From assembly GCA_019637335.1 (NCBI GenBank), contig JAHBVV010000019.1:391-64390 (forward strand): a stretch of DNA of 64,000 nucleotides. Direction: 5' to 3'. The stretch is from Candidatus Hydrogenedentota bacterium (GTDB taxonomy: Bacteria; Hydrogenedentota; Hydrogenedentia; Hydrogenedentales; JAEUWI01). Both the position numbers and the translations under genes were made by a program. Positions 543 through 44,576 of this stretch are shown piece by piece. The notes under the pieces are model-generated. The model did no database searches. It worked only from the letters and a program-made list of their open reading frames with translations, and was not told where the DNA came from. Position 1 is the first letter of the stretch, and every line of letters starts with the position of its first letter.

Positions 543-604
543 ATCGGGAAGCGCGGGCGCGGGTATAGAGGAATGGCGGCAAGCTCAGCAGGAGGGTATA
601 TGAT

Positions 605-1375: not shown

Positions 1376-1483
1376 GTGTGTTGCGCCTGCCGGAGGCTCC
1401 GGGCGGTTGCGAAGGCGTTTAAAGCCCGCGTTCGCCGGGGCGGGCGCCAGCAGAGGAGGGCTTGGGTGAGAGCAATCGAAGAT

Positions 1484-1858
1484 ATGCGCAATAGAATCAG
1501 GTTGCTACACAAGCGTGAATTGGAATTGGAAGACCGTGTAATTGGCTTTTTGAGCGTTGAATTACGCCGTTGGGCGGGTCTCCTCTATGTGGTGGCGGGG
1601 TTCTTCGTCTACCTGCTAAGCCCTCTTGCAGATCTGATCGTACAATGGATCGTATCCTTTTTGTGTCTATTCGCGTGGTTACTAGCATTTCCCTTGCTCT
1701 TACGTGTTAAAGAAAAGTGGATGGTTTTCTACAAGTGGAGATTTGCGTACTGGACACTCATCGTGGTCGCTTTTGTCTGCGCGGCTCCATACACTCTTTT
1801 CCCGTGGGTGTGGCTCTGTCTCTACCGTGCTTACGCGGCATTCCCGAGTTTGTTGTAG
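1484..1858 (+). CDS. small multi-pass membrane protein (hypothetical)
   Basis: 124 aa, MRNRIRLLHKRELELEDRV... followed by 3-4 Trp/Phe-rich TM helices. Lies in the low-GC island. Confidence 0.4.
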   Translation: MRNRIRLLHKRELELEDRVIGFLSVELRRWAGLLYVVAGFFVYLLSPLADLIVQWIVSFLCLFAWLLAFPLLLRVKEKWMVFYKWRFAYWTLIVVAFVCAAPYTLFPWVWLCLYRAYAAFPSLL

Positions 1859-2023
1859 TGTTTCCACATAGCATCCCACTTTCCTTGCCCCGCCTTCGAT
1901 TTCGCGCCGGGGAAACACTGTTCAGGACGCATTCGACGTGGCTCCATCTTTGGCAGGTGTCGTGCTTTCTTTCGGCTGGCGTTGGAACACAAACGCGAGC
2001 GCCTCGCGGAGGGACTTGATCCC

Positions 2024-3187
2024 ATGGGGATGCACAACATGAATGGGTGGAATTGGTTCACCGGCAATAAATGGAAGGCGATCATCGCCGCGGCGGCCGT
2101 GCTCTGCCTCATTGCGGTTGGACTATGGTCGGGCGGCTACGCGGTCCTTCGGTATGTGTGGTATGGCGCCGTGGACGGCCCGATCGCCGTTATTCGCCCG
2201 GATGGCTCCCCGGCGCCCGCGGAAGCGCTTGCCTGGCTGAAACCGGCGGCGGAGAACTTCTTCGCGCAGTCCGGCGATTCCCACTTGCTCGACCTGTGGA
2301 CGAAGCACGGGGCCGCGGGCGTCCTGGCCACCCTGCATGCCGGCACGCGAACGTTTGGTTCGGGTTTCCTTCGTGAGTTCACTTTGGAGAACGCCCCCGA
2401 GATATTTCCCATCCGCACCGAGCGGGGCTGCAATCTGGTCGATTGGGAAGGCAATGTCCACCTGCGGTTGGGTCCCAATGTGGACGATGCGGGGCCTGTG
2501 TCCGGGGGGTTGGTCGCCGTGCGGCGACGTACGGTGGATGATGGGTCGGGAACGGCCAAAGCCGCCTGGGCGTACCAGAATCTGGACGGGGAGACTGTTG
2601 TTCCGGGGCCGTTCGAGATTGCGTTTCCCTTTCAGGAGGGCCTCGCCGCGGTGGCGGTAACGCAGGATGACGGGACGTTGCGCTGGGGAATGATCGACAC
2701 GAGCGGCGCCTGGGCCATTGCGCCCCGTTTCTGGAGTTTGGGCGGGTTTTCGAACGGGCTGGCGCCCGCGGAGATCCGGGCGGACGACAACACGTTGGAG
2801 ACCGCTGGATTCATCGACCGTTCGGGCGCGTTTGCCGTTACGTTGGACGGCGCCCGTGGGATGCTGAGTTCACATCGGGATGGGCTCGCGCTGGTATGGT
2901 ATGGGTCGAGCCCGGGATACGCCCTTGTCGACGAAGCCGGCGCCATCGCCCTGGCGCTCGACTACGAGGACGTGGCCCCCTTTTCAGACGGTCGAGCGCC
3001 GGTGCGGGTCGGCAACGCCTACGGGTATATCGACACGGCGGGCGCGCTGGTGATTCCGGCGAAGTACGAGCGCCCGGCTTCCTTTTGCAGGGGCCTGGCG
3101 GTGGTGGTTCGTTATTCCGCCGTTCGCCATTGGGTGCTTCAAACCTACCTGACGTGGAAAGAGGCGCTTCCGGCGGGCCTGGGGTAG
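2024..3187 (+). CDS. WG (KWG-type) repeat-containing protein, N-terminally membrane anchored
   Basis: N-terminal TM (KWKAIIAAAAVLCLIAVGLW). Repeated motifs are GLAAVAVTQDDGTLRWGMIDTSGAWAIAPRF, GFIDRSGAFAVT and YGYIDTAGALVIPAKYE, typical of the WG_beta_rep family. Confidence 0.6.
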   Translation: MGMHNMNGWNWFTGNKWKAIIAAAAVLCLIAVGLWSGGYAVLRYVWYGAVDGPIAVIRPDGSPAPAEALAWLKPAAENFFAQSGDSHLLDLWTKHGAAGVLATLHAGTRTFGSGFLREFTLENAPEIFPIRTERGCNLVDWEGNVHLRLGPNVDDAGPVSGGLVAVRRRTVDDGSGTAKAAWAYQNLDGETVVPGPFEIAFPFQEGLAAVAVTQDDGTLRWGMIDTSGAWAIAPRFWSLGGFSNGLAPAEIRADDNTLETAGFIDRSGAFAVTLDGARGMLSSHRDGLALVWYGSSPGYALVDEAGAIALALDYEDVAPFSDGRAPVRVGNAYGYIDTAGALVIPAKYERPASFCRGLAVVVRYSAVRHWVLQTYLTWKEALPAGLG

Positions 3188-3254
3188 CCCTGGATTCGCG
3201 GGCCGGCCCCGGAGCGACGCAGAGGCCAATCGCGCGCGGGCGGGCGGCGGCGGT

Positions 3255-4390
3255 GTGTGGGGGGGGGGACAGCCGAGACGGCTGTGCCACGTTCCTTTCG
3301 GGGTGGCTTTTTGGGGGCGGGTACAGGCCCCTTGGGGACTGCCTCCGGCTCTTAAGTGGGCCAACGTATTGTCCAATGGCGCCAATCCAGCCAGTGGCTG
3401 TACCCGCAGAGCTTTCGGCGGGTACAGTCCCCCGCGATTTTGGGGTGGTATTGGGCGCTTTCGCGGCTTGGGTGGAATTTGTCGCGGGCTCCAGTCCCCT
3501 TGGGTCAGCGACGGGACAGCCGCGCCGGTTGTTGGTGTTGTGGGTTGGTTGGGCTGGCTTTTGGTGTTGTGCGGGCTGTTGGTGCGTGGGGTGATGGGGC
3601 GCCGCAGTCCCTGGGGTGGGCGGATTGCGTTGCAGTCCGGGGACAGCCGGGACGGCTATCCTACTTTTCGGCGGGTACAGTTTTTCACTACGCTTCGCGT
3701 CACCCATTAAGGACGAAAAAAGACGGCGGCTTCGCCGCCTGGCAGGCGGGGACGCCTGCGCTCCCAGCCTTTGCCGCTTCCTTGTTTGGGATACTGTAAT
3801 CTGGTTTGCATGGGGCAGTTGTGGTGATGCTGGGGCGCAGGTCGGATTGCGTTGCAGTCCGGGGACAGCCGGGACGGCTATCCTACTTTTCGGCGGGTAC
3901 CGCCGTTCATGACGCGTTGCGTCACCCGTTAAGTTTGAGATACTGCTCCTGACGGTTGCGCTCTTCTGGAGTCTCGCACGCTCAAGCCTTCGCGGCGGAG
4001 CCGCGGAGCTTGAACTTGGCACCCGTGGCTCCCTTTGGGGGCGACGGGACAGCCGCGCCGGTTTTCGGTGTTGTGGGTTGGTTGGGCTCGCTTCTGGTGT
4101 TGTGCGGGCTGTTGGTGTGTGGGGTGGTGTGGCGCCGCAGTCCCTGGGGTGGGCGGATTGCGTTGCAGTCCGGGGACAGCCGGGACGGCTATCCTACTTT
4201 TCGGCGGGTACAGTCGTTCATGACGCGTTGGGTCACCGGTTAGGTTTGAGAAACTGCTCCTGACTGTTGGCGCTCTTCTGGAGTCTCGCACGCTCAAGCC
4301 TTCGCGGCGGAGCCGCGGAGCTTGAACGTCGGAGATCCGCCGCAGGAGGATGGCACCCATGGCTCCCTTGAAATTTCAGAGCAGTCCCCT
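3255..4390. repeat. complex GT-rich modular interspersed repeat block. Includes an internal ~310-bp tandem duplication and three copies of the unit ...GCGTTGCAGTCCGGGGACAGCCGGGACGGCTATCCTACTTTTCGGCGGGTACAG...
   Basis: Sub-units are shared verbatim or nearly so with 6690-7215, 8480-9020 and, in reverse orientation, 55270-55700. Contains the hairpins CCGGGGACAGCCGGGACGGCT and TGACGCGTTGCGTCA. The ORFs here encode low-complexity G/W/V/R peptides and are judged non-coding. Confidence 0.8.
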
Positions 4391-4394
4391 TGGG

Positions 4395-6492
4395 TCAGCG
4401 GTGTGCGATGAGGGTCCAGGCGAATCTTGAGGCGAGGAACATTTCGCAGGCGAGGGTCCAGGGGAGGGCGAGGGGGTTGATGCGGGGCCAGCGTCCGGCG
4501 CGGATGCGGTCGAGGGCGTTTTGGCGGAGGGCGTTGAACTGGCGTCGCCGGGCGACGTAGCGGATGGCGATTTCCTCGTAGCCGGCGATGAGTTTGGTGG
4601 TGACGAAGCGCTCGGCGTCGATGAGGGTGTTCTGGCCGGGGACGTTGACTTCGATGGCGCGGACGTAGGCCTCGACTTCGGCGGCTTTTTGCGCGAGTTT
4701 GCGGCGTGCGGAGGCGCTGAGGTGGCTGCCGGTTTCGCTGAGCTGGCGCAGGCGCGTGGCGGCGGTGTTCAACATTTCGCGCAGCTCGCTTTCGGCGTCG
4801 GCGTAGCGGCCTTCGAGGCGGAAGCCGGCGACCCGCCGCTGTGCGGCGATCCATCGTTCGCGGAGGTCGGCGAGGGTGGCCCATCGGGGGTCGCGGGGCT
4901 TGCGGGTGAGCATCCAGATTTCCTGGAACTCGATGAAGAGCTGGAAGTAGACGCGGAAGCTTTCTCGCGCGTCGAGGAGGCGTCTGCGCAGGTAGGCGAG
5001 GCGGCTTTCGCTGGGGTAGGTGGGCCGGCGGCCGCGGCGCTCTTTGAGGCGGTAGATGCCGGTCGCCATGGGGTGTTGTCCGGTGAGGGCGCCGTGGCGG
5101 TACCAGATGGAGAAGCCGAGGATGGTCCAGTACTGGCGCGCTTCGGCGCGGAGCAGGGCGGCGATGATGTTCTGGGTGCTGTAGAGGGCGTTCATGGCCT
5201 CGTCGTAGGCGGCGCGCCAGCCGCCGCTTCCGAGGCGGGGGTGGCGGAAGGTTTCGTGGAGCCCGTCGTAGTTGTTGTAGTCCGCGTCGATGGGGACGCC
5301 GTCCTGGATCATCCGCCAGTGGTCGCGCGAACCCGGCAGCGGGGTGAGCATGAAGAGGGAGGCGACATCGACCTGGACCTCGTTGCGCAGAAAGGCGATG
5401 TTCTCGCGGACGGATTCCCGGGAGTCGTGGGGGAGGCCGATGATGTAGCCCACATGGACGAGGATGCCGTGTTCGTGCCAGGCGTCGACCATGGCGCGAT
5501 ACTGGTCGGCGTGGTTCTGTCGCTTGCCGACGGCCTTGAGGTTTTCGGGGTTGACGCTTTCCATGCCGATGAAGGCGAGGTAGCATCCGGCGCGGGCGGC
5601 TTTTTCGACGAAGCCGGGGATGCGGTGGGCCTGGGTGTCGGTCTGCATCATGAATCGAACGGCGATGCCGCGCGCGCGCAGGGCGATGAGGCCATCGAAG
5701 ATCGCGCTCCAGGCGGGATTGCGGGAGAAGTTGTCGTCGGTGAAGAAGTAGGAACGGATGCCGCGGGCGTAGTTGTCCTCGACCGCCTCGAGCACGCGTT
5801 CGGCGGGGCGGTAGCGCATCTTGCGGCCCTGGACGTTGATGATGGTGCAGAAGGAGCAGTTGAAGGGGCAGCCGCGGCTGGTGTCGATGGTGGCCATGCG
5901 GCGGGCGAGGTAGCGGCGCTGTAGCCGTTCGCTGGCGCGGGGCACGGGGGCCTGGGCCAGGTCGGGGAACTCGGTGATGTTGTAGATGGGCTGGAGGGCC
6001 TGGCGGAGCGCGTCGCCGAGGAGCCGGGCCATGACGCCGGGGGCCTCCACCTCGCCGCGGACGAGGGTGACCCCGGCGTCGAGCAGGCGCTGGAGATCGT
6101 GGGAGGGCTGGTCGAAGAGCGCGAGCATGCCGCTGACGTGGAAGCCGCCGATCATGACCTGGACGCCGGCGGCGCGGAGATCGAGGGCGAGGTCGGTAGC
6201 GCGCATGAACTGGTTGCTTTGCACACCGGCGAATCCGACGACCACGGTGGTGTCCGGGCGGCGGTTCCAGCGGGCGATGCGGCGGACGGGGATGCGCTCG
6301 AGGGTGTCGTCGAAGACGGAGACGGATACGCGGACGTCCGGGCCCAGTTCGCCCGATTCGCCGGTGTGTTCGGCGAGGCGCTGGAGGCAGCAGAGGGTGT
6401 TGGAGGGGAGGACGCCGCGGAGATAGCGGACGACGTAGCCGTCGTCGTCGTAGCGCGATGGCCGGATGAATACGGCATGCAGGTGCTTCATG
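4395..6492 (-). CDS. B12-binding domain-containing radical SAM protein (class B rSAM with a long C-terminal helical extension)
   Basis: The N-terminal B12-binding region starts at MKHLHAVFIRPSRYDDDGY. The CxxxCxxC motif (CPFNCSFC) is present, followed by the radical SAM core (GMESVNPENL...) and a C-terminal DUF4070-like region. The start is set at the internal ATG (6492), because the upstream extension lies in repeat DNA. Confidence 0.8.
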
Positions 6493-6689
6493 GGTTTAAC
6501 CCGCCCTTTCGTGAAAAAACAGCAGTTCACGAAGCGCGAGCCCGGCCCACAGGCGCACGATTCTCTTGTGGCTTCCTTCCGTGCATGCGGAGGGAATGCT
6601 TTATTGTGGCACAAATCGGGAGGAAAGGGGTAGCGGGGAATTGGGGGTGTGGGGCGAGCCGCTCGGGTGGGGTGGCGCTGGTGGTGGAC

Positions 6690-7215
6690 GGTTGGTGTTG
6701 CTCCAGGCACACGAAGGCGCTGGGGCGCCATCGCGTGGCACGGGGAGTGACCTTTCGGCGGGTACAGTCCCTTTGGGGACTGCCTCTGGCTGACAAGTGA
6801 GCCTACAAAATGTCCAATGGCGCCGATCCAGCCGGTGGCTGTACCCGCAGAGCTTTCGGCGGGTACAGTCCCCCGCGATTTGGGGGTGGTTTTGGGCGCT
6901 TTCGGGGCGTGGGTGGATTTTGTCGCGGGCTCCAGTCCCCTTGGGGCGACGGGACAGCCGCGCCGGTTGTTGGTGTTGTGGGTTGGTTGGGCTGGCTTTG
7001 GGTTTTGTGCGGGCTGTTGGTATGTGGGGTGTTGGGGCGCCGCAGTCCCTGGGGTGGTTCGGATTGCGTTGCAATCCGGGGACAGCCGGGACGGCTATCC
7101 TGCCTTTCGGCGGGTACAGGCCCCCGCGATTTGGGGGTGGTTTTGGGCGCTTTCGCGGCTTGGGTGGTTTTTGTCGCGGGCTCCAGTCCCCCTGGGGGCG
7201 ACGGGACAGCTATTA
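6690..7215. repeat. GT-rich modular interspersed repeat block (same family as 3255-4390)
   Basis: Shares the units GGCGGGTACAGTCCCCCGCGATTTGGGGGTGGT...TTGTCGCGGGCTCCAGTCCCCTTGGGG and GCGACGGGACAGCCGCGCCGGTTGTTGGTGTTGTGGGTTGGTTGGGCTGG... with the other loci. Confidence 0.8.
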
Positions 7216-7266
7216 TGCAGGGATTAATGGGATATGTTCAGGTGGGCCAGCCCGGAGGGAATTCTA

Positions 7267-8474
7267 TGCGGCGTTACGTGGGAATCTGGATGACGGGTGC
7301 GGTGGCCGCGGTCGCCCTGGGCGGATGCGAGGAGATTCCGTGTCCGGAGGCTATTCCAGGGCGTGTGGAGTCGGAAATCACCGCGACCTTTGACGCGCGG
7401 GCGTGGGACATCTGCGCGGCTTCGGGCGGCGGCTTTGTGGTGGCGGGGTACGCCTCCGGACAGCCATTCTCTCCGGTAGCTTCCGCAACGTATGAGAGAA
7501 GTCTCGATTCCTTTGTCGTTATGCTGGACGCATCCGGGAATATCGAGTGGTCCAGGACCTTTGGCGGCGATGGGGCCGACGAGGTGCGAAATATTGAGCC
7601 GGCGGGGGATGGGGGGTATATTGTCGCCGGAAACAAGGGGGCCTCGCCCCTCGATCCGGTCTTCTTTTACGATCCGGCAAGCGTCTTCGCGGCCAGGCTG
7701 GACTCCCAGGGGAGCGTGCTGTGGACCGTGGAACCCGAGACCGATCGCTTCACGGCGGCGTATGGGCTTTGCGTAAATGCCGACGGGAGCTTCGTCGTGG
7801 CGGGGGACACACGAGACGCTGAATACGGGGCGTCCGACGCCTTTTTGATCAAATTCGACCCCAATGGGGCGGAGCTCTGGCGCCGGCGCTATGGCAGTGG
7901 CCGGGATGTGGGCGCCCAAGACGTCATCACAACGAGTGACGGCGGATATGCGTTTACGGGGTACGTACAGGATCAGATTGTAGCCAGGCTTGATGCCGGC
8001 GGCGAAGTACAGTGGGAGTTCTTTCTGGACGAGGTCGCCATTCTTAAGGAATTGGCGTTCAGAACGAAGAAAATCATTGAGACGTCCGACGGTGGGTTCG
8101 CCGTCGTCGGAAGCACCTTTGGCGAACTGCTTGTGCTTAAGCTGGATGGCGGCGGCAACTACTTGTGGCAGGCCCGCGTGTCCGATGTGGGCGAGGCGGA
8201 AGGGCATGCTATTCTGGAGACTGCCGAAGGGGACCTGGTGGCGGCGGGCGTGAGCTACGCGCGCAATTCGTTTGGAAGACGTGTCTGTTCGCATTTGCTT
8301 CTCGTTCGATTGGGGAGCGAAGGGGACATACGCTGGAGCGGTCAGGTGGGCAGCAAGGAAACGATATTTCCGTGCGCCATGGTCGTGGATGGCGATAGCC
8401 TCAAGCTGGCGGGCTCTATTCGGGAGGACTTCGTGCATTCGATCTATCTGGTGACCACGGATGCGGGAGGATGA
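7267..8474 (+). CDS. beta-propeller repeat lipoprotein (delta-60/SBBP-like repeats)
   Basis: Signal peptide plus lipobox (AVALGGCEE). About six repeats of the type DGGYIVAG / DGSFVVAGDT / DGGYAFTGY / DGGFAVVGSTF / EGDLVAAGVSY. Confidence 0.5.
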
Positions 8475-8479
8475 GGGCG

Positions 8480-9020
8480 GTGATGGGTCTCGGCGGGTAC
8501 AGTCCCCCGCGATTTGGGGGTGGTGTTGGGCGCTTTCGCGGCTGGGGTGGTTATTGTCGCGGGCTCCAGTCCCCTTGGGGACTGCCTCTGGCTGGTACGT
8601 GGGCCAACGTATTGTCCAATGGCGCCAATCCAGCCGGTGGCTGTACCCGCAGAGCCTTTCGGCGGGTACAGTCCCCCGCGAGTTGGGGGTGGTGTTGGGC
8701 GCTTTCGCGGCGTTGGTGGTTTTTGTCGCGGGCTCCAGTCCCCTTGGGGGGCGACGGGACAGCCGCGCCGGTTGTTGGTGTTGTGGGTTGGTTGGGCTGG
8801 CTTTGGGTGTTGTGCGGGCTGTTGGTGCGTGGGGTGTTGGGGCGCCGCAGTCCCTGGGGGTGGCGACGGGACAGCCGCGCCGGTTGTTGGTGTTGTGGGT
8901 TGGTTGGGCTGGCTTTGGGTGTTGTGCGGGCTGTTGGGCCGTGGGGTGGTGGGGCGCCGCAGTCCCTGGGGGGCGGCTTGGGTGGTTTTTGTCGCGGGCT
9001 CCAGTCGCCTTGGGGGGGCT
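8480..9020. repeat. GT-rich modular interspersed repeat block (same family). Contains two tandem copies of the ~105-bp GCGACGGGACAGCCGCGCCGGTTGTTGG... unit
   Basis: Direct sequence identity with the 3255-4390 and 6690-7215 blocks. Confidence 0.8.
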
Positions 9021-9023
9021 GCC

Positions 9024-9977
9024 TCAGTCGATGTCTTCCATGGCGACTTGCTGGTTGTAGAAGGCGACGATGCCTTTTTCGCGGAGGGGGTTGCCTTCCT
9101 GCATGTAGGCGAGGGAGGTTTTGGGGTGGCGGTTGAGGTTGCCGGCGATCATGTAGGGCATTTCGTAGCCCCACTTGAGCTCGGCTTTCAACGATTCGAA
9201 GTATTTTTCGATGAGGGCGAGGACGGGGCGCACGTCGTATTTGGGGTTTTTGAGAAAACCGAGGAGGAGTTCGGTGGTGCAGTTGCCGGCGGCGCGGCCC
9301 ATGCCGTAGATGCTGCCGTCGAGCATGTTGATGCCCTTGCGGATGCCCTCGATGGTGTTGGCGAAGGCGAGTTGCTGGTTGTTGTGGCAGTGGATGCCGA
9401 CGGTTTTGCCGTTGAGGCCGTCGAGGTATTTGTCGGCGAGGTAGTGGATCTGTTCGGAGAAGAAATAGCCGAAGCTGTCGACGAGGTAGACGGCTTCGAA
9501 GGAGGTTTTTGCGAGTTCGGCGAGGGCTTCGTCGAGGTCTGGCTCGATGACGGTGGAGGCGGCCATGATGTTCACGCAGACTTCGTAGCCGAGATCCTGG
9601 ATGTGGCGTCCCAGGTGGATGGCCTTGTCCACTTCCTTGGCGTAGGTGGCGACGCGGAACATGGAGATTATGGATTCGTCTTTGGGGAGGAAGGCGTCGT
9701 AGTCGGTGCGTCCGACGTCGACCATGACGGAGATCTTGGTGTCGCATTCGAAGGCGACGTCGCGGAGGTCCTCTTCGTCGCAGAAACGCCAGGGGCCGTG
9801 GTTTTTCGGGTCGAACTGTTTCTTGTCGGCGCGGTAGCCGAGCTCCACGTAGTCCACGCCGGCGTCGACGAGGCCCTGGAAGACGTCCTTCACCATGGGC
9901 TTGTCGAATTCCCAGTTGTTCATGAGTCCGCCGTCGCGGATGGTGCAGTCGAGAACTTTAATTTCGGGGCGGTACAT
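9024..9977 (-). CDS. DRE-TIM metallolyase / pyruvate carboxyltransferase (HMGL-like) family protein
   Basis: The N-terminal VLDCTIRDGG motif plus a TIM-barrel aldolase-like pattern (VDYVELGY..., GIHCHNN) match the HMG-CoA lyase-like family. Confidence 0.7.
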   Translation of the reverse strand: MYRPEIKVLDCTIRDGGLMNNWEFDKPMVKDVFQGLVDAGVDYVELGYRADKKQFDPKNHGPWRFCDEEDLRDVAFECDTKISVMVDVGRTDYDAFLPKDESIISMFRVATYAKEVDKAIHLGRHIQDLGYEVCVNIMAASTVIEPDLDEALAELAKTSFEAVYLVDSFGYFFSEQIHYLADKYLDGLNGKTVGIHCHNNQQLAFANTIEGIRKGINMLDGSIYGMGRAAGNCTTELLLGFLKNPKYDVRPVLALIEKYFESLKAELKWGYEMPYMIAGNLNRHPKTSLAYMQEGNPLREKGIVAFYNQQVAMEDID

Positions 9978-20407: not shown

Positions 20408-21805
20408 ATGGACACTCCCAAGGCGAAATACCGGTTGCTGGTGATTGACGACGAGTCGTTGATGCGTGAATACGTCGAAGAGGCCCTGGTTCGGGCGGGC
20501 TACACCGTCGACACGGCCTCGAATGGCGCGGACGGCGTGGCGCTGTTTGACGCGCACCAGCACGACGTGGTGGTGACGGATTTGAAGATGACCCCGATGG
20601 ACGGGCTTCAGGTGCTTCAGGCGATCGAGGAGCGTAAGACGCAGTCGCGGGTTATCGTGATGACGGCGTACGGCACGATCGAAACCGCCATCAGCGCGCT
20701 CAAGGGCGGGGCGGCGGATTACATTCTGAAACCGTTCACGCCCGACGTGCTCGAAGTGGCGGTAAGCCGGGCGCTGGAGCACCAGCGGCTGGCGCGAGAG
20801 AACCAGTACCTCCGGGAGGAGCTGAACGTTCGGTACCATGCGGCGGCGATGGTGGGGAACAGCCAGGGCATGCGCCGGGTGCATGACGAAATCGGCAAAG
20901 TCGCCAACAGCCGCGCAACCATCCTGATTCGCGGCGCGAGCGGCACGGGCAAGGAGCTTGTCGCCCGAGCGATCCACCACGGGGGCGGGCGCGCGGAGAA
21001 GCCTTTTGTGAAGGTGAACTGTGCGGCGCTGTCGGCGGGGATCCTGGAAAGCGAGCTTTTCGGTCACGAGAAGGGCGCGTTTACCGGGGCGCACGACCGG
21101 AAGATCGGGCGTTTTGAACTGGCGGATGGCGGGACGCTGCTGCTCGACGAGGTGAGCGAGATCAACGTGGAGTTGCAGGCGAAATTGTTGCGCGCGCTGC
21201 AGGAGCGGGAAATCGAGCGCGTGGGCGGCACGCGGACGATCCCGGTGGACACCCGCATCGTCGCGACGTCCAACCGCGATCTGGAGGCGGCGGTGCGCGA
21301 GGGGAAGTTCCGGGAGGACCTGTTTTTCCGGCTCAATGTGATCACGATTGAATTGCCGCCGTTGCGGGAGCGCCGGGAGGACGTCCCGCGCCTGGCCGAG
21401 CATTTTCTGCAGGTTTTCAACCGGGAGAACGGGCGCCGGATCCAGGGCTTTACAGAGGCGGCGCGCGACGCGCTGCTGGCGTATGCGTGGCCGGGGAATG
21501 TGCGTGAATTGCAGAACGCGATTGAGCGGGCGGTGGTGCTGGCGCGGGGGGAGTGGCTCACGCCGGACGATTTTCAGTTTAATACGGCGGGGCTGCTGGC
21601 CGGGGGGCGGGAGAATGGCGGCGGGTTGGCTCCGGGGACGACGGTGGCGGAGATGGAGCGCGCCTTGATCTTCAAGACGCTGGAGCATTGCGATCAGAAC
21701 CGGACGCGCGCGTCGGAATTGTTGGGGATCAGCGTCCGGACGTTGCGGAACAAGCTGAAGGAGTATCAGGACGCCGGGATTGAACCGCGAATGGACGCGA
21801 ATTGA
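20408..21805 (+). CDS. sigma-54-dependent Fis-family response regulator (NtrC/FleR-like)
   Basis: REC domain (LLVIDDE...VVTDLKMTPMDG). AAA+ sigma54-interaction domain (GASGTGKELVARAIH, ESELFGHEKGAFTGA, GAFTGA motif). C-terminal Fis HTH (NRTRASELLGISVRTLRNKLKEY). Confidence 0.9.
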   Translation: MDTPKAKYRLLVIDDESLMREYVEEALVRAGYTVDTASNGADGVALFDAHQHDVVVTDLKMTPMDGLQVLQAIEERKTQSRVIVMTAYGTIETAISALKGGAADYILKPFTPDVLEVAVSRALEHQRLARENQYLREELNVRYHAAAMVGNSQGMRRVHDEIGKVANSRATILIRGASGTGKELVARAIHHGGGRAEKPFVKVNCAALSAGILESELFGHEKGAFTGAHDRKIGRFELADGGTLLLDEVSEINVELQAKLLRALQEREIERVGGTRTIPVDTRIVATSNRDLEAAVREGKFREDLFFRLNVITIELPPLRERREDVPRLAEHFLQVFNRENGRRIQGFTEAARDALLAYAWPGNVRELQNAIERAVVLARGEWLTPDDFQFNTAGLLAGGRENGGGLAPGTTVAEMERALIFKTLEHCDQNRTRASELLGISVRTLRNKLKEYQDAGIEPRMDAN

Positions 21806-21823
21806 CGCGAATGAGGATCTGAA

Positions 21824-22260
21824 TTGGGGGTTGGTGTTGTGAGGTTGGGTGCGGTCGTTGCCGTGGGCAGGAATGCTCGCGATCCTGGGGGGCGATCGCG
21901 TAGCGCGGGTGTCGGTGGGGTTGGGGTGGCTTGGGTTGGGGGTGATCGCTCGTTCAGGGTGGTGGGGCTGGATGTGGGGTGGTTGTTGCTCCGGGCACAC
22001 GAACGCGCCTGGGGCGCGATCGCGTGGCACGGGTGTCGGTGGGGTTTGGGTGGATTGGGAAGGGTTGGGGAGCGTGTGGAATCCGGGGGTTGTGTTGGGT
22101 CAGGCAGGGATGCCTAACCTCCTGTTGCGTCGCTGGTGTGTGGTGGGGTTGGGTGGATTGGGAAGGGTTGGGGAGCGTGTGGAATCCGGGGGTTGTGTTG
22201 GGTCAGGCAGGGATGCCTGACCTCCTGTTGCGCCGCTGGTGTGGTGTAGGGTTGGTTGTT
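21824..22260. repeat. GT-rich repeat block. Includes a perfect ~105-bp tandem duplication (22044-22148 / 22149-22253) with the hairpin GTCAGGCAGGGATGCCTGAC
   Basis: The two 105-bp units differ at about three positions. The upstream part (GGTTGTTGCTCCGGGCACACGAACGCGCCTGGGGCGCGATCGCGTGGCACGGG) matches 6695-6750. Confidence 0.8.
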
Positions 22261-22261
22261 T

Positions 22262-22300
22262 GCTTTTTGGCCGATATTTTGATATATTTAGAAATATGGA
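22262..22300 (+). promoter_or_regulatory. AT-rich putative ars promoter/ArsR operator with inverted repeat ATATTT-N13-AAATAT
   Basis: TTGGCCGATATTTTGATATATTTAGAAATATGG lies immediately upstream of and overlaps the arsR start. It is the only AT-rich stretch in its GC-rich surroundings. Confidence 0.4.
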
Positions 22301-22661
22301 AACTATGGATGCGATAGGCGCGCTGCAGAGTCTGGCGCAGGAGACGCGGCTGGCGGTGTTTCGGCTGCTGGTGCGGGCGGGTCACGGCGGTATGACGGCG
22401 GGCGACATTGCGGGCGCGCTGGATGTTCCGGGGCCGACGCTTTCGTTTCATCTGAAGCACCTTTGTCATGCGGGGCTGATTACGTGTCGCCGGGACGGGC
22501 GGTCGCTGTGGTATCGCGTGGAGTTCGAGCAGGTGCGTCTGTTGCTGGCGTATCTGATGGAAGATTGTTGCCAGGGGAATCCGGCGGTATGCGGCGATGG
22601 CGCGCTGTTGTGCGGGATTTCGCCGGGAAACGATGGAGACGAACATGGCGGATGCTGCTGA
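22296..22661 (+). CDS. arsR: ArsR/SmtB family metalloregulatory transcriptional repressor
   Basis: Winged HTH (LAQETRLAVFRLL...GGMTAGDIAGALDVPGPTLSFHLKHLCHAGLI). C-terminal Cys-rich tail. Sits upstream of arsC and arsM. Confidence 0.75.
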   Translation: METMDAIGALQSLAQETRLAVFRLLVRAGHGGMTAGDIAGALDVPGPTLSFHLKHLCHAGLITCRRDGRSLWYRVEFEQVRLLLAYLMEDCCQGNPAVCGDGALLCGISPGNDGDEHGGCC

Positions 22662-23091
22662 AAAACTGAAGGTGCTGTTTCTCTGCACGGGGAATTCGTG
22701 CCGCAGCCAGATGGCGGAGGGTTGGGCGCGGGCGCTGAAGGGCAACGAAATCGAGGCGTATTCCGCGGGCATTGAGACGCACGGGCTGAATCCGAATGCG
22801 GTGCGGGTGATGGCGGAGGCGGGGGTGGACATTTCGGGTCACCAGAGCCAGCACCTGGACGAATTGAAGCATGTTTCGTTCGATTATGTGGTGACGGTTT
22901 GCGGCCACGCGCACGAGACGTGTCCGGTGTTTCCGGCGGGCGCGCGGGTGGTGCATGCCGGGTTTGACGATCCGCCGAAGCTGGCGAAGGACGCGAAGAC
23001 GGAAGCGGAACTGCTTGCGCCGTACCGGCGTGTGCGGGATGAAATCAAGGCGTACGTAGCGGGCCTGCCCCAGGCTTTTGAGGAGATCTGA
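22633..23091 (+). CDS. arsC: arsenate reductase, LMW-PTP (thioredoxin-coupled) family
   Basis: CTGNSCRSQMAEG P-loop, a DP motif and conserved Cys residues. Overlaps the arsR 3' end (operon). Confidence 0.85.
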   Translation: METNMADAAEKLKVLFLCTGNSCRSQMAEGWARALKGNEIEAYSAGIETHGLNPNAVRVMAEAGVDISGHQSQHLDELKHVSFDYVVTVCGHAHETCPVFPAGARVVHAGFDDPPKLAKDAKTEAELLAPYRRVRDEIKAYVAGLPQAFEEI

Positions 23092-23093
23092 AC

Positions 23094-23972
23094 ATGAGTG
23101 ATGCGCAAGCGATTCGAGAGACGGTCCGCGCGGGTTATGGCGCGATTGCCGAGGGCGGCGGATCGTGCTGCGGCCCGGCGACGAACTGCTGCGGCGGCGT
23201 AACGGCGGATGCCGCGACGGAGCTGGCGGCGGCGGTGGGCTATGACCTGGAGGATTTGAGCGCGCTGCCGGAGGGCGCCAACCTGGGCCTTTCCTGCGGG
23301 AACCCGACGGCGCTGGCGGCATTGAAGGCGGGCGAGGTGGTGCTCGACCTGGGCAGCGGCGGCGGCTTTGACGTGTTTATCGCGGGCCGCAAGGTGGGGC
23401 CCGGCGGCCGGGCGATCGGCGTGGACATGACGCCGGCGATGCTGGATCGCGCGCGGAAGAACATCGCCGGCTATCGCGAGCGGACGGGCCTGGACAACGT
23501 GGAGTTCCGGCTGGGCGAAATCGAGCACCTGCCGCTTCCGGATGAATCGGTGGATGTGGTTATCTCCAATTGCGTTATTAATCTGTCGCCGGACAAGCCC
23601 CAGGTGTGGCGCGAGATCGCGCGCGTGCTCAAGCCCGGCGGGCGCGTGGCCGTGAGCGACATCGCGCTGCTGAAACCGCTGCCCGCGGAGGTGGTGGCCA
23701 TGGCCGAGGCTCTGATCGGGTGCATTGCGGGCGCGGTGACCGTGGCGGAGACGGCGCGGATGGCGGAGGCGGCTGGGCTGGAGCGCATTGCGCTGGATCC
23801 GAAGAGCGCGTATGTGGACGCGATGATGGATTCGGTGCAGGATTTCTCCTACCGCGAGATGATGGCGCACCTGCCGGAAGGCGCGAAGGCGAGCGATTTT
23901 GTGGTGAGCCTCGGTGTGAGCGCGGTGAAGCCGGGCGGCGCGGAAGCGTGCTGCGGGCCGGGTTGCTGCTGA
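23094..23972 (+). CDS. arsM: arsenite S-adenosylmethionine methyltransferase
   Basis: N-terminal Cys pairs (GGSCCGPATNCCGG). SAM-binding motif VLDLGSGGGFDV. C-terminal CCGPGCC. The overall pattern matches ArsM/AS3MT. Confidence 0.85.
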   Translation: MSDAQAIRETVRAGYGAIAEGGGSCCGPATNCCGGVTADAATELAAAVGYDLEDLSALPEGANLGLSCGNPTALAALKAGEVVLDLGSGGGFDVFIAGRKVGPGGRAIGVDMTPAMLDRARKNIAGYRERTGLDNVEFRLGEIEHLPLPDESVDVVISNCVINLSPDKPQVWREIARVLKPGGRVAVSDIALLKPLPAEVVAMAEALIGCIAGAVTVAETARMAEAAGLERIALDPKSAYVDAMMDSVQDFSYREMMAHLPEGAKASDFVVSLGVSAVKPGGAEACCGPGCC

Positions 23973-23984
23973 GCGATGGGGGGC

Positions 23985-24200
23985 CGCGGGGCCGCAACCA
24001 AAGAAATGATCACCACGAAGGGCGCGAAGACCACGAAGCGAAGGAGAGACGAAGCTTTGACCGCAGAGAACGCAGAGAGCGCATAGGGTGATTTCTTGTA
24101 CGCAGAGGGATTGGGTGGATGATCTAGAGCGCATTCTTAACCACGAATGAACACCAATGCACACGAATGCATCGGGAGCAGCCGCGGGCGGCGATAAAGA
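23985..24200 (+). repeat. ~200-bp interspersed repeat element, copy 1 (GGCCGCAACCAAAGAAATGATCACCACGAAGGGCGCGAAGACCACGAAG...CGCAGAGAACGCAGAGAGCGCATAG...CCACGAATGAACACCAATGCACACGAATGC)
   Basis: Near-identical 5' part to 24346-24560. A reverse-complement copy is at 59620-59850. Confidence 0.75.
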
Positions 24201-24345
24201 ATTGTGCCCACGGATTGCACTGATGACACGGATAGAAAATGATTTCGGTCGTTGGGGTGTGCAGGCGGCTGCGTGCTGTTTCCAAGGCAGCCTGTTTGGA
24301 TTGTTCAGCATCGGAATTGTAGCGGGGTTGATCGGTGGGCGGGCG

Positions 24346-24560
24346 GCTTCTGGCCGCAACCAAAGAAATGATCACCACGAAGGGCACGAAGACCACGAAG
24401 GAAAGAAGTTGGAGAAGGATTGATATTCACGCGAAGGCGCAAATACGCAAAGAAGCTGGTGTGGGCGTGATGCACAGTCACGGCGGGCGGGGGACTGGAT
24501 TTGGAGCCACAAAGAGCGCATAGAACACAGAGAAATTCTGTGATGGCGACTGGCCTGAGG
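24346..24560 (+). repeat. ~200-bp interspersed repeat element, copy 2
   Basis: The first ~50 nt are identical to copy 1 with one mismatch. The 3' part is diverged. Confidence 0.75.
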
Positions 24561-25001
24561 GGCATCTTCTTCCCGAAGGGCCAGCGCAGCCTGGTGTGAT
24601 CGCGAGTGGAAAGACCGAATACAGCGTCCTGGCTATCATGCCGATAAACCGTTTTTCATCAATGACTTGTGCTGTGGCGTGTTTGGAAATCCTGCTAAAA
24701 AAATTGACGGATAGTAGTACGAATGAAGAACAGGTGTTTCAGGCTCGGGATTCCGGGACTGCGGTGATGGCGTCAACGGGTCGTTCAGACACAAAGCACG
24801 CGTTGTCTCAGGCTGGAAGCCCAAGCGACGTTGGCGCATGTTGAATGATCTCGGTGTCCGTGGATCCACGGGGGCTGTCATTTCGGCGGGAAACCTGTTG
24901 TTGAGACGGATCGTGGCGGCTTACGCCGGGCCGCAGAAATTTTTTGAAAGGTAAGATCGATGGGTTGCTCCACCGTACCGGCCCCGAGCACGGGCCAGGC
25001 C

Positions 25002-26156
25002 ATGGGTATTTTTGAACGTTACCTGACCGTATGGGTGGGGCTGTGCATTGCCGGCGGGATTGTGCTGGGGAAGGTGGCGCCGGGTGTCGCCTCGACGCTT
25101 GACGGTCTGTCTATCAACGTGAATGGCGCGCCGGTCGTCTCGATTCCGATTGCGGTCTGCCTGTTTTTCATGATGTACCCGATCATGGTGAAGATTGACT
25201 TCGCCAGCGTGGTGCGGGCGGGGAAATCCGGCAAGCCCGTGCTGCTCACGTTGTTCATCAACTGGGGCATCAAGCCGTTTACGATGTACGGCATCGCCGC
25301 GCTGTTTCTCGGGGTGCTGTTTCGCGGGTTCATCGGCGAAGACGCCACGGATCTGGTGAAGATGCCGTTCGGGCTTGACCTGCCGGTCGGGGCGGAGTAC
25401 GGTTCGGGCGTGGTCGTGCTGCACGAGGGGGCGAAGATGCTACAGGTCCCGCTGTGGCGCAGCTACCTGGCGGGCTGTATTCTGCTCGGCATTGCGCCCT
25501 GCACGGCGATGGTGCTGGTTTGGGGTTTCCTCTCGCGCGGCAATGACGGGCTGACCCTGGTCATGGTGGCCATCAACTCGCTGACCATGCTGGTGCTCTA
25601 CGGCGTGCTGGGCGGTTTTCTGCTGGGCGTGGGGCGGCTTCCGGTTCCGTGGCAGGCGCTGCTGCTTTCGATTGGGGCGTATGTCGCGCTGCCGCTGGTT
25701 GCGGGGTACTTCAGCCGCCGCTGGATCATCGCGGCGAAGGGGGAGGCGTGGTTCAAGGAGAAATTCCTGCACGTGCTGACGCCGATCACCATTGTGGCGC
25801 TCCTGGTGACGCTTGTGCTGCTTTTTTCTTTCAAGGGTGAAGTGATCCTTGAAAACCCGCTGACGATCCTCTGGATTGCGATCCCGCTTTTCATCCAGAC
25901 TGTGGCCATTTTCGCGCTGGGCTATTTTCTGGCATGGACGCTTAAGCTGCGTTACGAAGACGCCGCGCCGGCCGCCATGATTGGCGCGTCGAACCACTTT
26001 GAAGTCGCGATAGCGACCGCTGTGATGCTTTTCGGGCTTTCGAGCGGGGCCGCACTGGCGACGGTGGTGGGGGTGCTTATTGAAGTGCCGTTGATGCTGA
26101 TGCTCGTACGTTTCTGTCTGCGCACGCGGGGGGCCTTCGGTCCGGGCGGAGATTGA
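25002..26156 (+). CDS. acr3: ACR3 family arsenite efflux transporter
   Basis: The N-terminus [24 protein letters not shown] is typical of ACR3. There are ten TM helices, including the conserved Cys-containing TM4 region. Confidence 0.85.
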
Positions 26157-36442: not shown

Positions 36443-36807
36443 TCACCAGTCGCGATTCGAGCAAACCGACAGTCCCACCCGCCTCTCAATAGCTTCTCGG
36501 CAATGAGGCAGCATTGTGCGTCTTGAAGATTTCATGTACATTAGACAACTCAGGCAGCGAGCAATGAATTCGGAGCAGCCGCTCATGACGCGTTTCGTCA
36601 CCCATTAAGGATGAATGCCGCTTCTGACTGTTGGCGATCAACGGAAGTCCCGTACCCTCAAGTCGTGACCGCTTTTGGCGGGGGTTCGAGAAAGAAAACG
36701 CAGAGATACGGATTGACGCCTCCCGTCACCCACAAGCTGATGGCCGCTTGAGGCGGCCCGCTTGAGGGTGGCACCCGTCGCTTCTTTTTAAATTTCGGAG
36801 CAGGCCC

Positions 36808-41683: not shown

Positions 41684-41705
41684 TGCTGGGGCGCGCTGGG
41701 GACAG

Positions 41706-41948
41706 CGTGGACGGAGTGGACGGAGTGGACGGCGTGGACGGCGTGGACGGAGTGGACGGAGTGGACGGAGTGGACGAGGTGGACGGACTGGACGGAGTGG
41801 ACGGAGTGGACGGAGTGGACGGAGTGGACGGAGTGGACGAGGTGGACGAGGTGGACGAGGTGGACGAGGTGGACGAGGTGGACGAGGTGGACGAGGTGGA
41901 CGAGGTGGACGAGGTGGACGAGGTGGACGGAATGGATCGAGCCATTAT
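41706..41948 (+). repeat. perfect tandem array of ~27 copies of the 9-bp unit GTGGACGRR. In the frame overlapping the recQ stop it is translatable as (VDG)n(VDE)n
   Basis: Direct reading: GTGGACGGA x7, GTGGACGAG, ..., GTGGACGAG x10. It is followed by reverse-complement half-units (CCGTCCAC). Confidence 0.9.
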
Positions 41949-42060
41949 GGCGCGCGTCCACCCGGTCCATGCTGTCCACCCCCGTCCACAGGGCTTGCAA
42001 AAGAAGCGGCCCCGCATAGCGGAGCCGCAAAACCAACTGAGATAGCGCCAGCTCCCGCCC

Positions 42061-43305
42061 CTATGGCGCGGTATACTCGCTCACATCCAGCACATACACC
42101 TGCCGCGTATCCCCCTCGTGCATGGAGTCGATCGCGATCGTGCGCCCGTCGCGGCTCCACGCGGGGTGAAGGTCGCAGCGCCACTCGTTTTCGCTCGGCT
42201 TCGGTCGGTAGAACTGGCCCAGGTCCACCCGCTTCCCGTCGCTCACGCGATAAAGATACAAGTGCTGCATCTTGTTCTTGTCCGGGTAGGTGTCGGAAAG
42301 AATCCATTTCCGGTCCGGCGAGTACGTGCAGTGCCCGTCGCGCGCCAGCACCCCATCGCCGATCACCGTCATCGCGTCGGACTGATCCCGGTACAGGATG
42401 AAGCGGTCGCCAATGTCCGGCTCGCGCGACCACGCCAGAATATGCTCCGGATCCCGCCAGATGAAGTGGCTCACCATCCCGTGGTCGGCCACCACGTGGA
42501 GGTTTCCGCCATTCGCGTCCGCCGTAAACATCCGCGTCGTGCGCGCTGTCGATCCCGGCTCGTTGTGCACGCGATGCAGAAACGTATACCGGCTTCCGTC
42601 CATGTTGTAAAGCAGGTGGTTAAACCAGTGCTTGCCCGCCGGCTTCGCCTCCTGTGGGATCGCCGCCGCCTGCGCGTAGGAAAAAAGCAACTCGGATTCG
42701 CCCGTCTCCAGGTTCATGCGCCAGATGCCGTCGCCCTCCGGCGCAAACTGCTCTGCAAGCGGGTCCACTCCGCCGTGGTAGCCGTAGCCCGGGCGCGTGT
42801 CCTGTATCCGCGCGAAGTTCACGCTCAGGCCCCACTTCCCGTCCGGGCTCACGCAATAGATCGCCCGCGGAAGTTTTCGGCGCTCGCCGCTGAACACATC
42901 CTGGATATACGAGACGAATGCCTCGCCGTCGCGGTCGTTGTAGATCACCTCCGAGTCGCTGCCCGGCAGCCATTGAAGCATGCAGCCCTGCTGCCAGCTC
43001 CAGGCACGGCTTTCGCCCAGGGGGATCCAGTGATCGCCGTCCTCCAGGTCCACCATACCCAGTTGGATGGCGTCGTCGGGGTTGGGCGTGCGGTCTTCGA
43101 AGCCCACCTGCATGGCCAACAGATAGCGGCCCGACGGATCGAACTGCTCCTTGTCGTAATAGCCGAACCAGTGGGCTTTGCCGGAGGTGACGGCGCGGAT
43201 GGGCACAATACATTCCGACCGTGCGCCCGTCTCCGGGATTTGCGTCCCGGCGCGAAGCGGAAAAGCGAACCCCGCCAGCAATACGATAATACAAGCCGTC
43301 CTCAT
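42061..43305 (-). CDS. secreted beta-propeller protein, oligogalacturonide-lyase-like/TolB-like (paralog 1)
   Basis: Signal peptide, then WFGYYDKEQFDPSGRYLL... and a C-terminal CDLHPAWSRDGRTIAIDS. 60-65% identical to the adjacent paralog. Confidence 0.45.
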   Translation of the reverse strand: MRTACIIVLLAGFAFPLRAGTQIPETGARSECIVPIRAVTSGKAHWFGYYDKEQFDPSGRYLLAMQVGFEDRTPNPDDAIQLGMVDLEDGDHWIPLGESRAWSWQQGCMLQWLPGSDSEVIYNDRDGEAFVSYIQDVFSGERRKLPRAIYCVSPDGKWGLSVNFARIQDTRPGYGYHGGVDPLAEQFAPEGDGIWRMNLETGESELLFSYAQAAAIPQEAKPAGKHWFNHLLYNMDGSRYTFLHRVHNEPGSTARTTRMFTADANGGNLHVVADHGMVSHFIWRDPEHILAWSREPDIGDRFILYRDQSDAMTVIGDGVLARDGHCTYSPDRKWILSDTYPDKNKMQHLYLYRVSDGKRVDLGQFYRPKPSENEWRCDLHPAWSRDGRTIAIDSMHEGDTRQVYVLDVSEYTAP

Positions 43306-44576
43306 CGCGAGCCCTCCGGATCCGTATATTCACTCACATCGAGCAAGTGCACCTGCCGCTTGCCGTCCAGGTACATCGCGTCAATGGCGACCGTCCTTCC
43401 GTCGCGGCTCCAGCCAGGGTGAAGATCGCAACGCCATTCGTTGTCGCTCGGCTTGGGCCGGTAGATCTGCGCCAACTCGATGAAGCGCTTGTCCTCCAGG
43501 TTGTACAGGTACAGGTGGTGCAGGTTGTTCTTGTCCGGATACGTGTCCGTAAGCATCCACTTGCGGTCCGGCGAATACGTGCAGTGCCCGTCGCGCGTGA
43601 AAACCTCCGCCCCGACGATCTCCTTCTCCTCGCTCTGGTCCCGGTACAGATAGTACGCGTCGCCCGTGTCCGGCTCCCGGCTCCACGCCAGAATATGCGC
43701 CGGGTCGCGCCAGATGAAATGGCTCACCATCCCGTGATCCGCCACAATGTGCAGGCCGCCACCGCCCGAGTCCGCCGTAAACATCCGCGTGGTCCAGCGG
43801 TTTTTCACGTCCAGCTCGTTGTGCGCGCGGTGGAGAAAAATGAAGCGGCTCCCGTCCGTGTTGTAGAGCAGGTGGTTGAACCAGTGCTTTCCGGACGGCG
43901 CCTTCTCCTGCGGGATCGCGGCAATATCGGCATACGAAAATAGCAGCGTCGATTCGCCGCTCGCCAGATCGACCGACCAGATCCCGTCCCCTTCCGGCGC
44001 GAGCTGATCCGCAACCGGATCCACCCCGCCCGCGTAGCCGTAGCCCGGGCGCGTATCCTGGATCCGCGTAAAATTGACGCTCAGCGCGCGCTTGCCATCC
44101 GGGCTCAGCGTATAGATCGGGCGGGGCAACACCCGCTTCTCCCGCGTAAACACATCCAGGATCACCGCCACATGCCGATCGCCCTCGATCGTGTTGTAGA
44201 TGATCTCCGAGTCCGACCCCGGTATCCACTGAAGCATGCACCCCTGCTGCCATCCCCACGCAGTGCTTTCCCCGAGCGGGATCCACGTATCCCCCTCCGC
44301 CGTGTCCACCATGCCGATGACGATCGCGTCGTCCACCGTCGGCGACCGGTCCTCAAAGCCCACCTCCATCGCAAGCACATAGCGGTCCGACGGATCGAAC
44401 TGTTCCTTGTCGTAATAGCCGAACCAGTGCGCCTTCCCGCTCGTGATGGCGCGAATGGGAACAATACACTGTATCTTCTCGCCGGTCTCCGGGATCTGGG
44501 CGCCCGAAGGCAGCATCCCCGCAAGCAGTACGCCCAGCACGGCGCCCATTCGGTTTACACGCGCGATATGTTTCAT
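43302..44576 (-). CDS. secreted beta-propeller protein, oligogalacturonide-lyase-like/TolB-like (paralog 2)
   Basis: SD GGAGAG lies 6 nt upstream of ATG (MKHIARVNRMGAVLGVLLAGMLPSGA). Its stop overlaps the start of paralog 1 (ATGA). Confidence 0.45.
   Translation of the reverse strand: MKHIARVNRMGAVLGVLLAGMLPSGAQIPETGEKIQCIVPIRAITSGKAHWFGYYDKEQFDPSDRYVLAMEVGFEDRSPTVDDAIVIGMVDTAEGDTWIPLGESTAWGWQQGCMLQWIPGSDSEIIYNTIEGDRHVAVILDVFTREKRVLPRPIYTLSPDGKRALSVNFTRIQDTRPGYGYAGGVDPVADQLAPEGDGIWSVDLASGESTLLFSYADIAAIPQEKAPSGKHWFNHLLYNTDGSRFIFLHRAHNELDVKNRWTTRMFTADSGGGGLHIVADHGMVSHFIWRDPAHILAWSREPDTGDAYYLYRDQSEEKEIVGAEVFTRDGHCTYSPDRKWMLTDTYPDKNNLHHLYLYNLEDKRFIELAQIYRPKPSDNEWRCDLHPGWSRDGRTVAIDAMYLDGKRQVHLLDVSEYTDPEGSR

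Follow-up and report, generated by a model that had tools for sequence, protein, structure and literature searches.

The ars Gene Cluster and Its Interrupted Organization

We analyzed a stretch of 64,000 nucleotides (hereafter the window) from a Candidatus Hydrogenedentota bacterium (assembly GCA_019637335.1, contig JAHBVV010000019.1, positions 391 to 64,390 of the forward strand), focusing on an arsenic detoxification cluster, arsR-arsC-arsM-acr3, in which a repeat-rich spacer separates the last gene from the other three. All four genes lie on the plus strand. The product of arsR (22296-22661) is an ArsR/SmtB metalloregulator, since its score against NF033788 is above the curated cut-off (66.6 bits against 55), and the Pfam domains HTH_20 and HTH_5 were also found in it. 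The product of arsC (22645-23091) is of the low-molecular-weight phosphatase type (Pfam LMWPc, 72 bits) and probably thioredoxin-coupled; its score against TIGR02691 (thioredoxin-coupled, pI258 type) was 155.6 bits, under the equivalog cut-off of 174.3, and both the CX5R P-loop (CTGNSCRS) and a distal cysteine pair (VCGHAHETC) are visible in its translation. arsM (23094-23972) encodes an arsenite S-adenosylmethionine methyltransferase, which was assigned to the ArsM family by NF008823 (315.1 bits against a cut-off of 263), has the S-adenosylmethionine-dependent methyltransferase fold (Methyltransf_31, E = 9e-36) and is 100% identical to an NCBI protein of a Candidatus Hydrogenedentes metagenome-assembled genome. 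The arsenite efflux permease gene acr3 (24960-26156) is intact, and its product belongs to the ACR3 family by a full-length match to TIGR00832 above the equivalog cut-off (377.9 bits against 282.8, model positions 1-327 of 327). An exact-protein look-up of Acr3 with either start codon, performed as a test of assembly continuity, returned no record.

The initial annotation had described arsR, arsC and arsM as tightly packed with overlapping ends, which is correct for arsR and arsC (an overlap of 17 nt) but not for arsC and arsM, which do not overlap and are 2 nt apart. It had also placed acr3 about 1 kb downstream of arsM, and the gap was measured as 987 bp.

Upstream of arsR, a promoter/operator region was read from the sequence at 22260-22295 on the plus strand, with TTGCTT at 22260-22265, a 17-nt spacer, TATATT at 22283-22288 and the ATG 7 nt on. 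The same layout (window 22260-22298) is kept in two relatives, at positions 5105-5141 of contig L003 and 9168-9205 of contig L004. Because this promoter-like layout ends only 7 nt before the ATG and a Shine-Dalgarno sequence is absent, the arsR mRNA looks leaderless, and the region resembles an ArsR-controlled promoter. An imperfect palindrome upstream of the gene, ATATTT...AAATAT, is likely to be the ArsR operator.

The ars operons of related Hydrogenedentes resemble that of the window in that the four genes pass the family models, gene order and strand are equal and the arsR promoter/operator region is kept. They differ in the distance between arsM and acr3, which is 4-120 bp in the relatives, while in the window the two genes are separated by 987 bp of repeat-rich, non-coding DNA. 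In L004, a Hydrogenedentiales contig with the order arsR-arsC-arsM-acr3 (ArsM 80% identical), the arsM-acr3 gap is 4 bp; in L128, a JGI contig (ArsM 79%), about 11 bp lie between the arsM stop and the acr3 start; and in L126, a closer relative in a Logan contig (ArsM 83%), the spacer is 120 bp and contains one strong GC hairpin. The Acr3 N-terminus of L126 is nearly identical to that of the window. The first 6 nt past the arsM stop, and possibly also the ribosome-binding region before acr3, are still L126-like in the window, and the repeat has no homology to the 120-bp ancestral-type spacer of L126. Since the gaps in the relatives are 4, about 11 and 120 bp, the long spacer was gained in the window lineage; by comparison of these contigs, roughly 870-980 bp were added between arsM and acr3, and an ancestral four-gene ars operon was physically interrupted. 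The earlier proposal that the repeats sit in inserted DNA splitting the operon thus holds in the physical sense, the DNA between arsM and acr3 in the window being absent from L004, L128 and L126. A further relative, L003 (ArsM 89% identical), has no acr3 before its contig end, which comes about 100 bp past arsM; its terminal sequence (6900-6937) is GTCATCCCCGCGAACGCGGGGATCCAGAGA, which resembles a type I-E CRISPR repeat.

With slightly better than even confidence, we regard the arsM-acr3 gap as lineage-specific non-coding DNA, most of it contributed by two copies, head to tail, of a modular interspersed repeat that has a third copy behind a GH31 glycosidase gene.

Structure of the Repeat Copies

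The two copies in the gap are on the plus strand. Copy A (23977-24235), delimited by its homology to copy C over 23977-24170 and by a scan for 9-nt periodicity, starts a few nucleotides past the arsM stop codon and is composed of a leader, GGCCGCAACCAAAG (23990-24003), followed by the modules M1 (three CACGAAG units, 24012-24040), M2 (three CGCAGAG units, 24057-24088), M3 (CACGAAT-type, 24139-24170) and M4 (CACGGAT-type, 24207-24235). Copy B (24333-24560), delimited by BLAST and by the periodicity scan, has the leader (24352-24365) and M1 (24373-24404) as in A, and then a CGCGAAG/CGCAAAG-type module at about 24428-24455 and a CACAAAG/CACAGAG-type module at 24507-24534. Copy C (59568-59867) is on the minus strand, 3' of the GH31 glycosidase gene (59907-61649, minus strand), whose product is 100% identical to a Candidatus Hydrogenedentes NCBI protein; it carries the leader, M1, M2 and M3 as in A, and a GC hairpin (z = -2.8) lies between the GH31 stop and the copy.

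A module thus consists of about three heptamers in 9-nt phase, the heptamers being CACGAAG, CGCAGAG/CGCGGAG, CACGAAT, CACGGAT, CGCAAAG and CACAGAG. The leader is an invariant 14-mer in A, B and C (three matches in the window against 0.9 expected). When the 64 kb were filtered for 9-nt periodicity, 6 of the 12 passing intervals fell inside the arsM-acr3 gap. In all three copies, the strand rich in purines coincides with the sense strand of the flanking genes. The rest of the gap (24561-24959, plus strand) is single-copy DNA of lower GC content (46-59%) with a few degenerate module-like fragments; no other copy of it was found within the 64-kb window, and its 82-aa open reading frame has no Pfam match.

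BLAST aligned copy A (23977-24170) with copy C (59867-59675, minus strand) over about 200 nt at 73% identity (E = 3e-28), and their global alignment scored far above dinucleotide shuffles (z = 26.9). A and B are 81% identical over their first ~90 nt only (24333-24423 in B, E = 3e-16), and the similarity of their 3' halves is at shuffle level (z = -1.0). Because B shares the leader and the first module and then continues with different modules, it is not a second copy of the ~200-bp unit of A. Of the three ~200-bp copies proposed originally, A and C therefore hold up, in identity as well as in global alignment against random expectation, but B does so for its first ~90 nt only. By these alignments the three copies are homologous.

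The arsM-to-A and GH31-to-C junctions were reproduced exactly by Logan assemblies from two independent runs. Both Logan contigs of the same organism terminate within the repeat, as expected because the sequence is multi-copy. The organism is present in the sequencing runs SRR21722023 and SRR21722013.

Reverse-Strand Reading Frames in the Repeat

Each copy had been proposed to encode a similar short hydrophobic peptide, MVF[A/V]PFVVIISLVAA, on one strand, which would make it a gene for a small hydrophobic protein such as a type I toxin-like membrane peptide. Open frames that start with GTG do exist on the reverse strand, of 61 aa in A and 90 aa in B. However, they run into antisense arsM or spacer DNA and their tails are unrelated, copy C has no equivalent start codon, and no Shine-Dalgarno sequence precedes the GTG. 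At the protein level, the codons of C differ from those of A by V to A, I to A and S to L replacements and a two-codon insertion, with zero synonymous changes. A search of 5.8 billion protein clusters returned no homologue of the 90-aa open reading frame, nor was there a Pfam match. The FVV/FVP pattern arises because the 9-nt period equals three codons, so that the repeated CTTCGTGNN reads F-V-x on the reverse strand. We therefore rejected the peptide as a by-product of the 9-nt periodicity, with neither start nor stop conserved, and consider such a gene extremely improbable; as judged from these frames, the copies encode no conserved peptide.

Probable Transcription across the Spacer

The RNA folds of A, B and C were no better than those of shuffled sequences (z = -0.98, -0.43 and -0.21). 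Array segments have a folding energy of about -33 kcal/mol per 150 nt, whereas the window averages -56.7 (standard deviation 11.3), and few RNA segments of the window are as weakly structured as the arrays. Over the arsM-acr3 gap G exceeds C, with a purine content of 0.60-0.67. No Rfam match was obtained for 21800-25000 at the gathering score or at E ≤ 10.

The annotation had suggested that acr3 may need a promoter of its own, as would be the case if the insertion split the operon functionally, the transcript from the arsR promoter ending in the gap and a new promoter in 24560-24960 driving acr3. The 987 bp of untranslated gap, a lower-GC segment at 24600-24750, imperfect hairpins with T-rich tails at 24262-24300 and 24916-24944 and the intactness of acr3, which is hence presumably expressed, are all consistent with this. 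However, a scan of the gap upstream of acr3 revealed nothing convincing: no sigma-70-like promoter of the quality of the arsR promoter was found, under sigma-70-like criteria that may not be those of this phylum, and there is no arsR-operator-like sequence. None of the gap hairpins folds better than shuffles, the terminator scan of the region gave five hits against 4.6 expected, and a sense strand in which G exceeds C is a poor substrate for Rho loading. A functional split is, in our view, a less likely but serious alternative.

Under the explanation that we favor, a modular spacer of inert DNA, the repeat is probably transcribed within the ars mRNA. The insert would be transcriptionally inert in its present orientation because it is U-poor, has G in excess of C, is unstructured and lacks a strong hairpin with a U-tract. 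If so, a single ArsR-controlled transcript could still cover arsR-arsC-arsM-acr3, translation of acr3 would start from a weak ribosome-binding site of its own (AAGG, 8 nt before the ATG), and the insert may have been tolerated because of this inertness.

A Wider Class of Heptamer Arrays

The copies were compared with a class of elements defined as at least three heptamers (CACGAAG-type) at 9-nt spacing, with a leader, GCCGCAACCAAAG, 7-20 nt upstream. The match to CACGAAGNNCRCGAAGNNCACGAAG is exact in A and B, and 9 nt are deleted in C. A, B and C share an identical leader with loci L002, L033 and L048. A search for the leader followed by 3-12 nt and ATCRCCACGAAGG yielded one match among GTDB genomes, in a deltaproteobacterial metagenome-assembled genome (L002) where the array is one arm of a long hairpin, and zero matches in JGI metagenomes. 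Using the array alone (CACGAAGNNCRCGAAGNNCACGAAG, chance expectation below 1), at least 120 JGI metagenome contigs and at least 120 IMG/VR viral contigs were retrieved. By this sequence match, the window copies belong to a class of CACGAAG arrays that is present in many metagenomic and phage contigs.

Among the matches listed, the metagenome array loci range in GC content from 36 to 74%, and about half of the instances are hairpins in which an array is followed, after 8-170 nt, by an inverted array, with TTCAC...GTGAA extensions. The heptamers pair in these hairpins, and the 2-nt spacers pair in 38 of 80 cases, which is near chance; the spacer dinucleotides favor purines, with GA, AG, AA and GG accounting for 65%. 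The same leader, 7-20 nt upstream of the array, was found in 10 of about 116 metagenome elements and in one viral contig, against ~0.1 expected by chance. Solo arrays show a weak bias in orientation relative to genes (33 against 23), and the hairpin forms have no clear preference for convergent over co-directional gene pairs. Nine of 10 leader-type elements, the three window copies included, lie just 3' of a co-oriented open reading frame. The leader is conserved in sequence, and the consensus fold of 12 leader regions has only -0.9 kcal/mol, with no covariation. The idea that the leader is a tRNA 3' end or the relic of an integration site was rejected, there being no tRNA in the window and no conservation of the upstream hairpin. 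Other heptamer flavors co-occur and nest in array loci (L091, L010 and L011). A search of Rfam with the window and 20 loci carrying typical array hairpins, at gathering and permissive thresholds, identified only a cobalamin riboswitch and tRNA, both elsewhere, and no family covers the typical array members. Neither the gap nor a typical hairpin element gave a BLAST match to plasmids, and literature searches on the array and leader sequences and on intergenic 9-bp hairpin repeats returned only unrelated primer matches and papers about other repeat types.

Contig L150 (IMGVR_UViG_3300010347_003297), whose terminase, portal and repressor genes mark it as truly of phage origin, contains five arrays in 11.8 kb. 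At 600-9650 of this GC-rich contig, several intercistronic gaps are filled by T-poor, purine-rich, sense-oriented short arrays of the types CACGAAG, CGCGGAG, CACAGATGAA, GACGGAAG and CGGCAAC. Before the terminase gene, the stop codon is followed by three CACGAAG units, three CGCGGAG/CGCGAAG units, the CACAGATGAA type, a hairpin and a ribosome-binding site, and the order of these modules is that of window copies A and C.

Taken as a class, these elements may be described as chains of three-unit heptamer arrays at 9-nt phase, often forming long mismatched hairpins, with one sub-family led by GCCGCAACCAAAG.

Possible Functions and Origins of the Arrays

The arrays could be functional cis-elements whose heptamers, one every 9 nt, are phased sites for a multimeric protein that binds RNA or DNA and acts on mRNA stability, downstream translation or transcription elongation; in the ars operon they would then set the level of acr3 relative to arsRCM, and REP/BIME elements, MIRUs (mycobacterial interspersed repetitive units) and phage stoperators would be comparable systems. 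That heptamers are kept while the purine-biased 2-nt spacers vary, that the leader is conserved without covariation, and that 9 of 10 leader-type copies follow a co-oriented gene all argue for such sites, as do the near-chance pairing of spacers between paired heptamers in the listed hairpins and the sense-oriented arrays in several intercistronic gaps of the repressor-encoding phage contig. Against this, no candidate binding protein was identified, and among the matches listed solo arrays are only weakly biased in orientation and hairpin forms lack a clear preference for convergent pairs. Moreover, the divergence of the window copies (73%) and the swapped modules of B argue against strong constraint beyond the leader and M1. 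We consider this function unlikely.

The ends of the copies bear on another possibility, namely that they are decayed non-autonomous transposable elements, similar to miniature inverted-repeat transposable elements (MITEs), mobilized in trans by a transposase or a phage. The hairpin version found in other organisms would then be the intact element, its array and inverted array serving as the terminal inverted repeats. In line with this, the element is multi-copy and assemblies break inside it, arrays are present in phage contigs, the cross-phylum distribution suggests horizontal spread, and about half of the listed metagenomic instances have the array-loop-inverted-array form with its extensions. 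Copy C is also bracketed by a perfect 11-nt direct repeat, CCGCTGGCCGC (59857-59847 and 59578-59568). However, no terminal inverted repeats and no inverted arm were found in or around A, B and C, the hairpin forms being seen only in other organisms, and no transposase was seen beside any copy examined. Inspection for target-site duplications showed flanking direct repeats that differ in length, with 11 nt at C, 8 nt at A and 6 nt at B; since transposase-made duplications would not be expected to be so unequal, microhomology fits better. GH31 relatives, considered as an empty-site comparison for C, are at most 71% identical and too distant. Overall, a MITE-like origin seems quite improbable.

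For the inert modular spacer, the following course of events can be proposed. Recombination at short GC-rich microhomologies, or else exchange with phages, would have seeded copies beside GC hairpins at gene ends, and their arrays would then expand and contract by slipped-strand mispairing. Several observations weigh against the inert-spacer explanation. The three copies A, B and C are the whole sample from this genome. At 24916-24934, 25 nt before acr3, there is a weak terminator-like hairpin (z = -1.0) with a T-run behind it, and the imperfect hairpin between A and B (24262-24300) is followed by TTTGGATTGTT. The flanking direct repeats of the three copies could be insertion footprints of a mobile element. 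Finally, the heptamer, its strict 9-nt phase and the 13-nt leader are kept across genomes of 36-74% GC, which exceeds the expectation for junk DNA and suggests a sequence-specific partner. As inert DNA does not explain why heptamer, phase and leader are conserved across phyla and phages, protein binding and a mobile-element origin both stay viable as readings.

A broader proposal, which we consider less likely than not, covers both: the arrays might form a widespread, unnamed class across unrelated phyla and phages, serving as phased sites for RNA- or DNA-binding factors or as ends of a new type of mobile element, and influencing the genes they separate. If they were indeed factor-bound or mobile, they would represent a common, overlooked intergenic component in environmental bacteria and their phages.

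Locally, the locus offers a case in which a tight resistance operon has been pulled apart by repeat DNA with every gene intact. It also carries two cautions for annotation, because the 9-nt phase produces plausible-looking hydrophobic open reading frames and short-read assemblies break in such repeats, right at operon junctions. As a local finding this is modest; the class appears to be uncharacterized and is of more interest than the peptide idea.

Other Repeats in the Window

The genome is unusually rich in intergenic repeats. After the stop of a recQ-like open reading frame (41683), the interval 41697-42036 holds 26 tandem 9-mers (GTGGACGGA / GTGGACGAG), then a 17-nt loop and four inverted units of the CGTCCACCC kind (41955-41982), and at 42024-42036 the leader-like GCCGCAAAACCAA. 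This architecture is that of the CACGAAG class, with another heptamer and a much expanded arm, and the 26-unit GTGGACGGA array therefore indicates that such arrays expand. Beside it, at 42059-44468, two adjacent segments of ~1.25 kb (42071-43212 and 43324-44468) share 76% DNA identity and, on this alignment, are a tandem gene duplication on the minus strand.

Between a sigma-54 activator gene and arsR (21884-22237), a G/T-rich unit of 103 nt is tandemly duplicated. Its two copies (22032-22134 and 22135-22237) are 93% identical, and part of a third is present at 21884-21940; the hairpin GGTCAGGCAGGGATGCCTGACC occurs in each unit, and a related 73-nt piece lies at 6671-6744. A larger and different family of interspersed repeats occupies 3300-9075, 36578-36662 and 55275-55618, in pieces of 90-360 nt that are 90-95% identical and occur in varied arrangements and both orientations. 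The cobalamin riboswitch mentioned above (RF00174, 66.6 bits) is at 47769-48070, and about 500 nt upstream of it, at 47271, a GC hairpin is followed by a leader-like GCGGCAACACCAA with no arrays after it.

Comparison with Known Repeat Systems

The class is similar to the REP/BIME elements and REPINs of proteobacteria in that both are short, multi-copy and extragenic and often lie just 3' of genes, and its common form elsewhere is likewise a hairpin of two inverted halves. However, the arms of REP/BIME elements and REPINs are imperfect palindromes of 20-40 nt, whereas those of the class are a tandem 7-nt motif at 9-nt phase. The class lacks a GTAG or CGTC tag, an inverted arm is missing from the window copies, which also form none of the stable hairpins typical of REPs (z from -0.2 to -1.0, with internal inverted repeats absent), and in the 64 kb of this genome no RAYT transposase is known to be linked to it.

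Short tandemly repeated repetitive (STRR) heptamer repeats were reportedly described in heterocystous cyanobacteria by Mazel et al. in 1990, and they are said to be intergenic short tandem heptamers as well, with several flavors per genome and a function that is not known. The class differs from them in its period of 9 (a 7-nt motif plus 2 variable nucleotides), in the usual three units per module, in the chaining of modules in a recurring order behind a conserved leader and in its presence in many phyla and in phages.

MIRUs, reportedly described by Supply et al. in 1997, are said to resemble the window repeat in being intergenic inserts within operons, oriented with transcription and present in tandem copies. 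They are units of 46-101 bp with small open reading frames translationally coupled to their neighbors, whereas the window repeat has no conserved open reading frame and is built of 9-nt arrays.

The arrays of phage contig L150 also recall the stoperators of cluster A mycobacteriophages, which are said to be asymmetric short motifs in many intergenic phage gaps, mostly in one orientation relative to transcription. Stoperators, however, are reportedly single repressor sites of 13-14 bp, while the class consists of phased arrays and occurs in chromosomes as well.

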